This document shows, one piece after another, positions 397 through 3,866 of a stretch of 64,000 nucleotides of DNA. Below the pieces are notes generated by a model. It was not told the origin of the DNA and did not search any database. It saw only the letters and a program-made list of their open reading frames with translations. The stretch is from a virus. The stretch lies in IMG/VR virus record IMGVR_UViG_3300009425_000015, positions 16,308 to 80,307 of that record; one strand, 5' to 3'. The position numbers were made by a program, and so were the translations under genes. The stretch's first letter is position 1; each line of letters opens with the position of its first letter.

Positions 397-614
397 TGAT
401 TTACTTTCTTGAGGCTCGACGCCATTATCTTGCGATGTTCCAATTGCGATCCACCTCCCTTCTTGCACCACAACACAGAACAAAGATAATCTGTTTGACG
501 AAACACTGCTGACTCTACCTTCATAACAAGTCCATGGCGTTCGGAGGTATCACTGAGATTACAAAAACTGTGCTGATGCACTACCAAATCACCGACTTTC
601 ACCAACTTTTTCAT
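393..614 (-). CDS. MKVGDL-family small SH3/KOW-like protein (cassette L)
   Basis: MKKLVKVGDLVVHQH...GLVMKV...SVLW; contains the 13-nt core at 589-601. Confidence 0.7.
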   Translation of the reverse strand: MKKLVKVGDLVVHQHSFCNLSDTSERHGLVMKVESAVFRQTDYLCSVLWCKKGGGSQLEHRKIMASSLKKVNQ

Positions 615-694
615 CTGTTTCTCCAACTGTCTATCAACATCTGGCCGGCCCACAAGCCGATTGCAATAGTTATCACGCTTCCTAGAAATTCCAT
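611..694 (-). CDS. 27-aa single-TM peptide
   Basis: MEFLGSVITIAIGLWAGQMLIDSWRNR; GGAGG RBS upstream; ATGA overlap with next gene; not in ORF track. Confidence 0.55.
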   Translation of the reverse strand: MEFLGSVITIAIGLWAGQMLIDSWRNR

Positions 695-719
695 TGTCTT
701 TCCTCCATTTGATATATCA

Positions 720-748
720 ATCATATATCATTTTTTCTCATATGTCAA
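720..748 (-). promoter_or_regulatory. sigma70-type promoter TTGACA-N17-TATGAT
   Basis: Minus strand TTGACA TATGAGAAAAAATGATA TATGAT. Confidence 0.7.
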
Positions 749-776
749 GCTTATTTTTTATAAGCCTTGTTACATG

Positions 777-850
777 TACCCCGGACAGGACTCGAACCTG
801 TAACCCTCGGCTTAGAAGGCCGATGCTCTATCCAATTGAGCTACCGGGGC
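777..850 (-). tRNA. tRNA-Arg(UCU)
   Basis: GCCCCGGTAGCTCAATTGGATAGAGCATCGGCCTTCTAAGCCGAGGGTTACAGGTTCGAGTCCTGTCCGGGGTA: cloverleaf, GGTTCGA T-loop, anticodon TCT; CCA not encoded. Confidence 0.95.
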
Positions 851-1004
851 TTATTGTTTTACATTCGCTTCTTACTCGCCAGAATGTTCTCTCCCTCTCA
901 AAATCATAAAATTTTATTGTCCCACCCTCTATGTTGTCATAAAGCATGATGCCAATCTGTGTGTCATAGGTGCTCCGCCAAAGAATCAAATCACCGACTT
1001 TCAC
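828..1004 (-). CDS. MKVGDL-family protein (cassette K, 58 aa); 3' end overlaps the tRNA
   Basis: Hand translation from GTG 1004: MKVGDLILWRSTYDTQIGIMLYDNIEGGTIKFYDFERERTFWRVRSECKTISPGSSIG*. Confidence 0.65.
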   Translation of the reverse strand: MKVGDLILWRSTYDTQIGIMLYDNIEGGTIKFYDFERERTFWRVRSECKTISPGSSIG

Positions 1005-1194
1005 CTGTCACCACCTTTAAATCATAATCCCACACGTTGTTCCCTATGGTACCGTTGTTCCACAATACCTTGAACGTCTTGTTGGTGCAACCCATGCCCT
1101 TGTTGTGTCCGACATTTTTAATAAGCACACCGAACCGATCAGTGTGAAATATCCGGTTTGGATGGTTGTCTTTTACTAAATCACCGACTTTCAC
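991..1194 (-). CDS. MKVGDL-family protein (cassette J)
   Basis: ORF track; paralog of 3491..3679 (FKVxWxxGTIGNxVWDYDLKVV); ends ESR*. Confidence 0.8.
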   Translation of the reverse strand: MKVGDLVKDNHPNRIFHTDRFGVLIKNVGHNKGMGCTNKTFKVLWNNGTIGNNVWDYDLKVVTGESR

Positions 1195-1357
1195 TGATTA
1201 CCTCCAAGTAATTTTTAGACCAGTCATTCCGGCTGTGGTTGTCATCGAGCCACTGTACAGATACTTGGCCGGAGCAGATTTTAACCACGATACCCATAGA
1301 CTTCCTGTATTTCTTCCAGCCTTTATCTCGTGGTAGCACTAAATCACCGACTTTCAC
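1181..1357 (-). CDS. MKVGDL-family protein (cassette I, 58 aa)
   Basis: Hand translation: MKVGDLVLPRDKGWKKYRKSMGIVVKICSGQVSVQWLDDNHSRNDWSKNYLEVISESR*; GGAGG RBS. Confidence 0.8.
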   Translation of the reverse strand: MKVGDLVLPRDKGWKKYRKSMGIVVKICSGQVSVQWLDDNHSRNDWSKNYLEVISESR

Positions 1358-1532
1358 TTAACACCTCCATGGCATGATAGCTCCACACACAGTGACCTAT
1401 TGCAGTTATAACATGAATATCTGGATTCTCAAAGGGGCATTTCTCGTAACTCGGACATACGCCGCACCAGCCGACTCCCGTTACGATACCGGTACGCCCT
1501 TGCCCATTTTGTACTAAGTCACCGACTTTCAC
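1344..1532 (-). CDS. MKVGDL-family protein (cassette H) with Cys-rich loop
   Basis: MKVGDLVQNGQGRTGIV...CGVC...EVLSESR*. Confidence 0.8.
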   Translation of the reverse strand: MKVGDLVQNGQGRTGIVTGVGWCGVCPSYEKCPFENPDIHVITAIGHCVWSYHAMEVLSESR

Positions 1533-1535
1533 TGA

Positions 1536-1637
1536 TTAACTCCAAGAATCTTGTGTCACAATCATCTTCACAACATGCTTGTCGCATGCCATCGAAGCGG
1601 CGATGTTTGGATTTTCGTCTAATACAAAAATATTCAT
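1536..1637 (-). pseudogene. Truncated pyrimidine-dimer glycosylase (DenV-like) N-terminal fragment
   Basis: MNIFVLDENPNIAASMACDKHVVKMI matches the MNIF-x-LD...DKHVVKM N-terminus of phage DenV-like proteins; stops after 33 aa. Confidence 0.65.
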
Positions 1638-2132: not shown

Positions 2133-2274
2133 TGAGCGACTCATATTGGGGGTTCCCAACCCAGAAGTCCTGCCTAATCCCACAACTCCACAGTACTGTT
2201 CTGCGACCGAATCCATGGGTCAGGATCACGAGTCCAACATTATCGAGCTTTCTTACCAAGTCACCGACTTTCAC
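2119..2274 (-). CDS. MKVGDL-family protein (cassette F, 51 aa)
   Basis: Hand translation: MKVGDLVRKLDNVGLVILTHGFGRRTVLWSCGIRQDFWVGNPQYESLSESR*. Confidence 0.8.
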   Translation of the reverse strand: MKVGDLVRKLDNVGLVILTHGFGRRTVLWSCGIRQDFWVGNPQYESLSESR

Positions 2275-2461
2275 TGATTACCTCCGAAGACTGTTCTATT
2301 TGTCTGCCCAACTGGATGATCCTGCCAGCAACAAGTAATTCCCAGTCATAGTTTAGCCAGTCGGCACGAGGGAGTTTCCTGATCAGCAGGGCGATGCCCG
2401 TTGGCAATCCCCAGTGTCTACAACAGCCGGGTGGTAAGTTTATTATGTCACCGACTTTCAT
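2261..2461 (-). CDS. MKVGDL-family protein (cassette E, 66 aa)
   Basis: ATG 2461 with GGAG RBS; 47/66 identical to 3666..3866 (manual alignment). Confidence 0.85.
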   Translation of the reverse strand: MKVGDIINLPPGCCRHWGLPTGIALLIRKLPRADWLNYDWELLVAGRIIQLGRQIEQSSEVISESR

Positions 2462-2488
2462 TTGACTTCTCCAAATCTTCATATTAAC

Positions 2489-2517
2489 ACAATATCAGTT
2501 GTTTTCTTAAAAGTCAA
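2489..2517 (-). promoter_or_regulatory. sigma70-type promoter TTGACT-N17-TATTGT (extended -10)
   Basis: TTGACT TTTAAGAAAACAACTGA TATTGT; -35 contains the TGA stop of cassette D. Confidence 0.6.
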
Positions 2518-2666
2518 GCATTATTTTTACTAATTATCTCCAACTCTGCGGCGATGGCCCAATACCACTTACCGGATGGATAAAGCACGCGATAGTTGTT
2601 GAACATAATCTCTACTAGTAACCCTACGCCGAAATCGTAAGTCTCAACTAAATCACCGACTTTCAT
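2514..2666 (-). CDS. MKVGDL-family protein (cassette D, 50 aa)
   Basis: Hand translation: MKVGDLVETYDFGVGLLVEIMFNNYRVLYPSGKWYWAIAAELEIISKNNA*. Confidence 0.8.
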   Translation of the reverse strand: MKVGDLVETYDFGVGLLVEIMFNNYRVLYPSGKWYWAIAAELEIISKNNA

Positions 2667-2680
2667 TTTCTCTTGCCTTG

Positions 2681-3124
2681 TCAAGTAGTTTCTATTACTT
2701 TTCGGAGTCTCGCCCTCATCCTATCCTCATCCCAGTCGAGAGTCTCGCTATGACACTCGGTGATGATCTCTTTGATGAGCCTGTCGTATAATCGCTTATC
2801 TTCGTCGTCGAGGATGTCCTCTTCTCTCCATGTAATAACCTTTTCCAGCCGCTCAATCTGCTCTTCAACTCTTTCTGGTGTATTGCCGCCACAAATATGA
2901 CAAGCATCATCTTTACAAGAGGAGTCGCAGTAACAATCTGGGCATCCCATTCCGCCTTCTTGATAGGCAACACAGTCTTCTTTTAGATGCTTATAAGGAT
3001 ATGGATTGTCCGCCAACTTTTGTAATGTTTCTTTGTGATCGTCAATAACTTGTTCTGCTGCTTTTCGGCATAGTGATCGCAGTTTGATGTTTTCTTTTTT
3101 TAGTTTTCGGTTTTCGTCAGTCAT
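2681..3124 (-). CDS. hypothetical protein with CxxC clusters and coiled coils
   Basis: CPDCYC...CHICGG; AGGAG RBS. Confidence 0.7.
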   Translation of the reverse strand: MTDENRKLKKENIKLRSLCRKAAEQVIDDHKETLQKLADNPYPYKHLKEDCVAYQEGGMGCPDCYCDSSCKDDACHICGGNTPERVEEQIERLEKVITWREEDILDDEDKRLYDRLIKEIITECHSETLDWDEDRMRARLRKVIETT

Positions 3125-3186
3125 TTTATTTCTCCTCGCAACTGTCCATAAGTATCAAACTCTTGTTCGCAAGTTAACACAGTGTG

Positions 3187-3504
3187 TTAACTTTCGCAAC
3201 CATTCTTGATTGCAGCGTTTGGCCCTGATCTCCTTGCTTTTGGGAATAGGGTGTTTTCTTTTTTTAGATCTCGTACCAAACTATCCTCAATTGGCTCTGG
3301 ATGGATACCTTTTGTCTCTTTGTTTGGTAAGCGTTCTATTTCGCTGAATATTCCCTTTATTGCGACGTTTGCAAAGTGCTCACAACTGTCTTCCAATGTA
3401 GTATCCCTGTCATAGACAGTGCAAAAACCAGTCTCAGCTGTGCAGGTTGATCTAAGATAAACACAGTTTCTACAATGGCGCTTGACCAAATCACCGATTT
3501 TCAT
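3187..3504 (-). CDS. MKIGDL-headed protein with unrelated Cys-rich body (cassette C)
   Basis: MKIGDLVKR followed by CRNC...GFC...SCEHF. Confidence 0.65.
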   Translation of the reverse strand: MKIGDLVKRHCRNCVYLRSTCTAETGFCTVYDRDTTLEDSCEHFANVAIKGIFSEIERLPNKETKGIHPEPIEDSLVRDLKKENTLFPKARRSGPNAAIKNGCES

Positions 3505-3679
3505 TTACAACCTTCAAATCGTAATCCCATACGCGATTGCCAATGGTGCCGTCTTGCCACGAGACTTTGAAACTCTTGTTTAGGGCTGTAGGCACGTTGA
3601 GATACATTTCGGTTAGAAGCACACCAATTTTCTTTGCTCGCCCAGGATAGTTATAGTAAACTAGATCACCGACTTTCAT
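3491..3679 (-). CDS. MKVGDL-family protein (cassette B)
   Basis: ORF track; ends ENR*; paralog of 991..1194. Confidence 0.8.
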   Translation of the reverse strand: MKVGDLVYYNYPGRAKKIGVLLTEMYLNVPTALNKSFKVSWQDGTIGNRVWDYDLKVVNENR

Positions 3680-3866
3680 TGATTACCTCCGAAGATTGCT
3701 CTAGCTGTCTACCGAGTTCAATATATCTGCCATCAACGAAGACTCTCCAGTCATACTCCAACCCGTCATTGCGTGGTAGCTTCTCAACCAAGAGCGCGAT
3801 GCCCGTTGGCAGTTCCCAATGGCGACAGGCACCTCTTTGCAACCTTATTAAGTCACCGACTTTCAT
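3666..3866 (-). CDS. MKVGDL-family protein (cassette A)
   Basis: ORF track; ends ESR*; paralog of 2261..2461. Confidence 0.85.
   Translation of the reverse strand: MKVGDLIRLQRGACRHWELPTGIALLVEKLPRNDGLEYDWRVFVDGRYIELGRQLEQSSEVINESR

Follow-up and report, generated by a model that had tools for sequence, protein, structure and literature searches.

A double-coded junction repeated between small-gene cassettes of an uncultured marine phage, and its probable second role as a recombination boundary

What keeps a short coding sequence the same, synonymous sites included, at the start of many small genes that are otherwise diverged? The question is raised by an array of such genes lying at 589–3865 of the window, the whole stretch of 64,000 nucleotides analysed here, which corresponds to bases 16308–80307 of an 80,307-nt IMG/VR virus contig (contig coordinates are written C1:, and the source genome is labelled G000). 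The contig is estimated to be 43% complete, and all negative statements on encoded genes cover this 80-kb fragment. On the minus strand, the window carries 11 exact copies of a 13-nt core, TGAAAGTCGGTGA, at 589, 991, 1181, 1344, 1519, 2119, 2261, 2448, 2653, 3666 and 3853, together with one single-mismatch copy, TGAAAATCGGTGA, at 3491, which bears out the count of 11 exact in 12 copies given by an earlier note on this DNA. With up to two mismatches allowed, the window contains 16 core matches compared to 1.56 expected, a number reached by none of 100 shuffled sequences. The full contig has 19 copies, the seven additional ones being located just left of the window (C1:14734–15930); all are co-oriented, and 18 of the 19 are uniform. 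Based on the evidence set out below, we consider it probable that the core belongs to a dual-coded coupling junction between neighbouring genes, and that this junction serves also as a recombination boundary, with homogenisation specific to the individual phage lineage.

Every core begins with the final two bases of the start codon (GTG or ATG) and continues as AAA GTC GGT GA; it opens an open reading frame (ORF) of 50–69 amino acids (one of 105) that begins with MKVGD(L/I). At 13 copies the same bases are read twice: the upstream ORF, in the frame one base earlier, ends on them as ...(L)E(V/L)(I/V)(S/N)ESR-TGA, with a 14-nt overlap in which the upstream gene stops 11 nt inside the downstream gene. 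Along the gene strand, the junction comprises a GGAGG(T) ribosome site placed within the upstream Leu-Glu-Val codons, a 5-nt spacer, the GTG or ATG start and then AAA GTC GGT GA, read as Met-Lys-Val-Gly-Asp in the downstream frame and as Ser/Asn-Glu-Ser-Arg-stop in the upstream frame. The block conserved in 19 of 19 copies starts at the T of the start codon and reaches as far as the A of the TGA, and conservation falls to 8–17 of 19 in the flanks on both sides: ribosome site and spacer are variable, as are the Leu and Val codons further downstream. The Asp codon just past the stop is GAT in 11 copies and GAC in 8, equal to the genome share; a GC-biased conversion spilling into adjoining synonymous sites is thus not seen. 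The 13-mer allows 39 single-base changes, 38 of which affect the start, the stop, the upstream tail or the downstream protein; the sole doubly silent one is C to A at core position 8 (GTC to GTA and CGG to AGG). Double coding therefore fixes 12 of the 13 core bases, an explanation to which the earlier note had given too little weight. The ESR tail itself is a by-product of the overlap, because cassettes at the end of a run lack it and finish in ...ISFYQ, ...ISKNNA or ...ISPGSSIG.

Double coding cannot account for two things, the invariant C and the exact cores on copies that overlap no upstream gene. The doubly silent site is C in all 19 copies of G000; the codons of this genome favour A in either frame (GTA 0.25 vs GTC 0.19; AGG 218 vs CGG 39 of 807 Arg codons), and the C share expected there from G000 codon usage is just 0.12. 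Regarding the copies without overlap, no upstream ORF in the overlap frame exists at 3853, 2653, 2448, 589 and C1:14734, and at the first four of these the other frame is open for only 11–15 codons. Copy 1519 likewise lacks a real upstream gene, its start-less relic tail ...LELISESR being fused to a truncated 33-codon ORF. The earlier note had rightly identified the four copies at 589, 2448, 2653 and 3853, to which 1519 and C1:14734 are to be added, and the differing codons it had read in similar proteins outside the array were verified at 4740 (GAA ATA GGT), 12920 (CAG CCA GGT) and 35324 (AAG GTA GGA).

The same core was found by exact scanning in at least 118 IMG/VR contig stretches, many of them arrays with up to 12 copies; the contigs carrying it number more than 100 and belong to uncultured phages, mostly from marine samples. 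A second scan of IMG/VR was codon-blind (ATG AAR GTN GGN GAY YTN GT) and provided an unbiased sample of copies. Among 50 pairs formed with homologues in other viral contigs, where the residue is the same the codon is too at a rate of 0.89 for K-V-G and 0.91 for E-S-R, compared to 0.44 in the cassette interiors and 0.40 in the three codons D-L-V that follow the stop. The comparison of synonymous diversity across homologues, proposed by the earlier note, thus points to long-lived conservation.

This conservation is distributed unequally between overlapped copies and run heads. In the codon-blind sample, the exact 9-mer AAAGTCGGT is present in 48 of 83 overlapped copies (58%) vs 16 of 85 heads (19%). 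The 69 non-exact heads use Val codons (GTT 24, GTA 21, GTC 15, GTG 9) and Gly codons (GGC 28, GGT 22, GGA 15, GGG 4) near background, and only their AAA remains high (71%). Heads are therefore a mixture of exact blocks and freely drifted copies, which argues for inheritance of the block as a unit rather than for site-wise selection on heads. A site acting autonomously, without the overlap, does not agree with these numbers, and the free synonymous variation that the earlier note had named as grounds for abandoning a constraint is found in part. The share of exact heads in G000 is not exceptional, given that 5 of its 7 non-overlapped homologues are exact vs 9 of 22 heads in similarly uniform arrays (binomial p about 0.1). 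Internal copies and heads differ also in their signals for expression. GTG starts are found in 189 of 373 internal copies (51%) vs 25 of 231 heads (11%) in other phages, and G000 has 11 GTG and 3 ATG at internal copies vs 4 ATG and 1 GTG at heads; a Shine-Dalgarno-like motif precedes 86% of internal copies vs 55% of heads in the other phages. Sigma-70-like promoter-like sites in the window are placed ahead of run heads only (3907–3934, 2489–2517, 720–748), never at internal junctions. The GTG starts and the in-gene ribosome sites of internal copies fit a coupling of translation by termination and reinitiation.

Core uniformity is specific to the lineage. In the comparison between arrays, the doubly silent site is C in 14 of 14 copies for G000, 13 of 13 for array L074 and 9 of 9 for L107, with all C also in L094 and L012; it is mixed in L092 (7 A, 4 C, 2 G), L002 (5 G, 3 C), L018 and L021. 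Arrays differ at this site beyond chance (permutation p < 0.0002), and some consist mostly of other cores (L092, 2 of 20 exact; L132, 0 of 10 exact; L002, mostly GTG). An obligatory site is not supported, as some arrays carry A or G at this position.

Evidence for exchange of the cassettes comes from comparison between phages. All 17 inter-phage blastn tracts of at least 120 nt have lengths of 169–226 nt and cover one cassette each, none spanning two; each begins at its 5′ end between −16 and +3 nt relative to a start codon, and the alignments, 84–92% identical, stop within the junction on both sides. The relative L195 shares five modules with G000 in permuted order, its array being flanked by the same methyltransferase gene (70.6% nucleotide identity), and the closer relatives L192 to L194 (77–79% in that gene) share almost no cassettes. 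Position within a run is equally changeable: the cassettes that head runs at 3853 and 2448 have homologues in internal positions in L044, L107, L026 and L055 and one at the head, behind a promoter, in L003, and the cassette C1:15586–15777, internal in G000, is a promoter-led head in L055. Three junctions between non-paralogous cassettes share 30–33 identical nucleotides. Probable traces of such rearrangement are retained in G000 itself: at copy 589 the junction GTG probably survives as Val, now preceded by a more recent ATG, and copy 1519 keeps a relic of the tail. The G000 fragment encodes an exonuclease and, at 40238–41425 (minus strand), a UvsX-like recombinase; the latter is a candidate, by association only, for the enzyme of short-homology exchange.

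We therefore propose the following scenario. Ribosomes ending the upstream gene would restart at the nearby start codon, and whole cassettes would be swapped, lost, gained or promoted to run heads through short-homology recombination at the junctions, possibly by the phage's UvsX-like recombinase. Exchange at junctions would keep the junctions of one lineage alike (concerted evolution), and the present heads would be cassettes that were internal until recently. The invariant C and the exact cores on non-overlapped copies would then be due to the second role of the junction, as exchange site. Of the constraints at DNA or RNA level that the earlier note had listed, a recombination site or gene conversion fits best, while a stand-alone protein-binding or RNase site is unsupported. 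The junction relic upstream is no more frequent at exact heads, suggesting that the replaced sequence ends at the start codon, as is expected for a crossover inside the core.

Several points weigh against this scenario. Since the upstream relic is no commoner at exact than at non-exact heads, the pattern fits a core crossover without proving one. The heads 3853 and 2448 are synonymously saturated relative to each other, yet their 15-nt starts are identical, which needs either repeated 5′ replacement or selection. C is favoured across the whole pool (79–82%), and this fits equally well with selection on the CGG-UGA termination context or with a bound factor. Some of the compared sequences had been collected by means of the exact motif itself, and the translational coupling is a prediction from sequence. 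No relative above about 92% nucleotide identity was found, and no base-level crossover or recombination intermediate was seen; the best relatives for placing breakpoints at base level share about 79% nucleotide identity in the flanking methyltransferase gene.

Among the alternatives, the one to survive best, though unlikely in our assessment, is selection of the exact RNA sequence for termination and restart, with a rare CGG before UGA or with avoidance of a decoy AGGUGA ribosome-binding sequence after the start; recombination would not be needed for a fixed C. Consistent with it, C is preferred over A pool-wide, with 55 of 70 copies in the codon-blind sample (p = 3e-9) and 282 of 343 overall compared to an expectation of 0.43 at the phage loci; CGG is the rarest Arg codon of G000 (39 of 807); and the preference is tied to overlapped copies and gone in non-exact heads, as would be the case for a termination-linked effect. 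However, the arrays with mostly A or G at the site (L092, L018, L002, L132) look intact, the exact cores on five non-overlapped heads of G000 are left unexplained, and the 19 junctions show no consistently conserved RNA fold or hairpin (z-scores −1.3 to +2.0).

Somewhat less likely again is that the 13-mer represents, on every copy, the recognition site of a dedicated factor, be it a translational repressor or endoribonuclease resembling RegA or RegB, or else an enzyme (site-specific recombinase or nuclease) shuffling cassettes in an integron-like manner. The sharp-edged invariance, the common orientation of the copies, the presence of the core on G000 heads and the breakpoints at junctions would all suit such a factor. 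Against it, most heads in other phages do not carry the exact site and choose Val and Gly codons at about background frequency, variant cores occur frequently outside G000, and the junctions lack an inverted repeat or attC-like hairpin, the array's only inverted repeat lying at 3168–3196. Searches of the fragment gave no match for a tyrosine recombinase (PF00589; control positive in 14 genomes), a serine recombinase, RegA (PF01818) or RegB (PF10715), a weak argument considering the share of the genome covered and that the RegA and RegB controls gave no match either. A related idea, to which we assign a similarly low probability, sees the core as an actively maintained crossover signal, such as a Chi-like hotspot or a site recognised by a phage nuclease or recombinase, with the invariant C as part of the signal. 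If true, marine phages would possess, in these arrays, a cassette system dedicated to diversifying small binder proteins. Even less likely than the crossover signal is that reading shifts by +1 at AGU-CGG-UGA and thereby joins adjacent barrels into proteins of several domains.

Very recent amplification of cassettes or of the entire array, with synonymous sites lacking the time to change, is highly improbable, and the 'very recent spread' considered by the earlier note is not upheld. The uniformity of 18 of 19 copies in one genome would be in its favour, but cassette interiors show a median amino-acid identity of 18% and a codon identity of 0.32 at identical residues, and even the closest paralogue pair (heads 3853 and 2448) shares only 12 of 32 such codons. 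Duplication in the recent past is ruled out by interiors so saturated; moreover, the bases flanking the core vary, and the same core is present in the at least 118 viral contigs mentioned. Genome-wide codon bias as the reason for AAA GTC GGT has nothing in its favour and is effectively ruled out by the usage in 43 long ORFs (17,843 codons), where AAA makes up 0.47 of Lys, GTC 0.19 of Val and GGT 0.25 of Gly codons for a combined probability of 0.022, by the cassette interiors, which use all Lys, Val and Gly codons, and by the other, non-overlapped MK(V/L)GD homologues of the contig, the array head at C1:16094 (MKLGD) reading ATG AAG TTG GGA GAC and C1:9143 (MKVGDLV) GTG AAG GTT GGA GAC; the conservation is thus at nucleotide level, as the earlier note had suggested.

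How the junction relates to known systems is considered next to its role in exchange. Modular shuffling in the hyperplastic regions of T4-type phages is mediated by promoter-early stem-loop (PeSL) cassettes (Arbiol et al. 2010, PMC2839356; Comeau et al. 2014, PMC4122927), which are intergenic elements composed of a promoter plus terminator (PMC2839356, PMC4122927). Like the PeSL, the junction is a short motif that recurs between phage genes that are small, non-essential and fast-evolving, it lies where genes are inserted, deleted, replaced and reordered between relatives (as in the 17 single-cassette tracts and the permuted order of L195), and exchange is attributed to homologous recombination between motif copies. 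Unlike the PeSL, it sits in coding sequence, uniting a C-terminus, a stop, a ribosome site, a start and an N-terminus; it has no stem-loop, promoters are found at run heads only and not in each copy, and the genes on both sides share one protein fold. Mini-circles are a feature on the PeSL side; for the G000 junctions, exchange is proposed from sequence comparison. G000 differs from the PeSL hosts in that it is not T4-type by its replication genes, the DnaE-like polymerase having about 29% identity to the best cultured-phage matches.

There exist similarities also to overlapping co-directional genes coupled by termination-reinitiation (Huber et al. 2019, PMC6728339; PMC10666635), where typical overlaps are 4 nt (ATGA) or 1 nt (TGATG) (PMC6728339; PMC10666635). 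Shared with these pairs are the co-direction, the stop/start overlap, the ribosome site in the upstream gene and the tolerance of weak GTG starts; the predicted coupling at the G000 junction departs from them in its 14-nt overlap, with the stop 11 nt downstream of the start, and in the reuse of one sequence at 13 overlapped junctions of one genome and in more than 100 phage contigs. Integron cassettes resemble the array in that small genes without promoters of their own follow a promoter at the head, a boundary element recurs between them, and whole cassettes are gained and lost, but integrons have an attC-type imperfect inverted repeat, absent here, no tyrosine recombinase was found in the fragment of about 43% of the genome, and the present boundary is coding and overlapping between cassettes of a single fold. 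No description of such arrays was found in the literature, and the string MKVGDLV was found in no paper.

Looking at the array in gene order (all features on the minus strand), run 1 is preceded by a sigma-70-like promoter at 3907–3934 (TTGACA-16-TATACT, TG extended) and headed by the exact core at 3853–3865, with an ATG start at 3866, no overlap and the other frame open for 15 codons. The head cassette (3666–3866; 66 aa, MKVGDLI...EVINESR) is a paralogue of the one at 2261–2461 and ends as ...INESR-TGA on the exact internal junction core at 3666–3678. It is followed by a 62-aa cassette (3491–3679), a paralogue of 991–1194, whose junction has the variant core (3491–3503) that changes Val to Ile downstream and Ser to Asn upstream. 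A 105-aa ORF (3187–3504) starting with MKIGDLV closes run 1 without the ESR tail, and a 14-nt inverted repeat (hairpin) across its stop codon (3168–3196) may be a terminator. The exact core at 2653–2665 (no overlap, other frame open for 12 codons) heads a lone 50-aa cassette at 2514–2666 that ends in ...EIISKNNA, with no ESR.

Run 3 has its sigma-70-like promoter at 2489–2517 (TTGACT-17-TATTGT, TG) and an exact, non-overlapped head core at 2448–2460, the other frame being open for 11 codons. Its 66-aa head cassette (2261–2461) is joined by the exact core at 2261–2273 to a 51-aa cassette (2119–2274), and this by the exact core at 2119–2131 to the 55-aa cassette at the run end (1965–2132; tail ...EVISFYQ, no ESR). 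The 33-codon ORF at 1536–1637 (MNIFVLDENP...) terminates within a complete junction, in a different frame from the relic tail; the exact core at 1519–1531, with its start-less upstream frame ...LELISESR, is a relic junction or a recombination scar, and together with the ORF it looks, by its arrangement, like a scar of recombination or deletion that truncated another gene. From there a 62-aa cassette (1344–1532), an exact internal core (1344–1356), a 58-aa cassette (1181–1357), an exact internal core with the full GGAGGTAATCA ribosome site and spacer upstream (1181–1193), a 67-aa cassette (991–1194) and a further exact internal core (991–1003) lead to a 58-aa cassette at 828–1004 that has no ESR tail and whose final codons enter a tRNA-Arg(TCT) gene (776–850) within the array. 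Stretches 82–96% identical to this tRNA gene occur in many other array-bearing phage loci, so that tRNA and arrays appear to travel together.

The last run has its sigma-70-like promoter at 720–748 (TTGACA-17-TATGAT). Behind this strong promoter-like site lies a 37-aa hydrophobic ORF, MEFLGSVITIAIGLWAGQ..., at 611–724 (minus strand), whose TGA overlaps (as ATGA) the ATG that extends cassette 589 by four codons. At the exact, non-overlapped core at 589–601, the preceding GTG is situated behind the newer ATG at 612–614 (MKKLVKVGD) and is probably an internal Val codon left over from an internal junction. The window's last cassette (393–614; 69 aa from the GTG at 602 or 73 aa from the ATG at 614) has the tail ...KKVNQ. 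Left of the window and after the array, small ORFs at C1:14336–14572 and C1:14098–14349 contain an internal ...GDLV but differ in their N-termini and lack the standard junction; possibly these represent older or degenerate cassette relatives.

The cassette proteins share the consensus MKVGDLV...G(I/V)V...V.W...W...LEVIS. The AlphaFold model of cassette 1181–1357 (pLDDT 85.6) is a barrel of five strands (residues 6–9, 22–28, 31–36, 43–47 and 51–55), and Foldseek matches it best to domains of KOW, SH3-like and NdhS type (query-normalised TM-scores 0.7–0.8, E-values only about 0.01). The model thus suggests that the cassettes encode SH3/KOW-like β-barrels, similar in their five strands to the KOW/SH3-like/Tudor-type barrels of Spt5 and NusG KOW domains, kin17 and NdhS. 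Unlike members of those families, the cassettes have no Pfam match at the curated cut-off: in 10 cassettes searched, no family, KOW included, reached its gathering score, and PHROGs gave one weak N-terminal match in one of the 10 (phrog_16289, E 0.004). A search among 5.8 billion proteins returned no named homologue, only 8 unnamed metagenomic proteins.

G000 is an uncultured marine myovirus that encodes a tail sheath protein, DnaK, GroEL, ribonucleotide reductase, a DnaB-like helicase and a DnaE-like polymerase. On the minus strand of the window, DnaK is at 10710–12590, GroEL at 17164–18738, the DnaE-like pol III alpha at 25617–29060 and the tail sheath protein at 56397–59840. DnaK is 54–61% identical to database dnaK copies over 86–95% of its length, and the best matches of the pol III alpha among cultured phages reach about 29% identity; the tail sheath, at 1147 aa, is unusually long. 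DnaK, GroEL, the divergent polymerase and the long tail sheath together suggest a lineage without cultured relatives. Next to the array, at 5348–7361 (minus strand), a 431-aa DNA methyltransferase has its start overlapped by a 255-aa ORF; its gene is conserved (77–79% nucleotide identity) in relatives whose arrays almost entirely differ. The same arrays are found on contigs of metagenome-assembled genomes (MAGs) labelled Acidiferrobacteraceae, Candidatus Peribacter, Legionellales and WOR-3 (L186, L187, L188, L190, L191). These are most likely phage contigs binned into unrelated MAGs, and the labels consequently do not serve as host evidence. An isolate genome of Pandoraea capi (L189, 59.5% GC) has two exact cores about 160 nt apart within a large repeat protein and was set aside as coincidence, not a cassette array.

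Seawater metagenomes hold pieces of the array, and one seawater run of 2019 contains a few records of 151–324 nt with 0 differences, indicating that a near-identical phage was present there. Logan contigs of four seawater metagenomes gave many junction-to-junction 'joints' with sides of only 20–32 nt, which include repeats of other organisms and were not counted as recombination evidence. No RNA sequencing run containing the stretch was among the runs listed. GenBank phages gave no DNA match to the array except for the tRNA, none to the 39-nt junction and none to a cassette protein.

Lastly, the findings have importance for the evolution of phage genomes. These are mosaic, and how small accessory genes are swapped without breaking their expression is only partly understood, the best described device for it being the intergenic PeSL of T4-type phages. 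A boundary located in coding sequence, holding the end of one gene together with the ribosome site and start of the following one, would allow a newly joined cassette to be expressed at once. The barrels of roughly 60 residues that are joined in this way constitute a large uncharacterised protein family. Conservation of the core is here separated into the contribution of double coding, which covers 12 of 13 bases, a remainder that it does not explain, and evidence that this remainder behaves like blocks inherited as units with lineage-specific homogenisation; this separation gives a testable handle on recombination-driven concerted evolution in phages.

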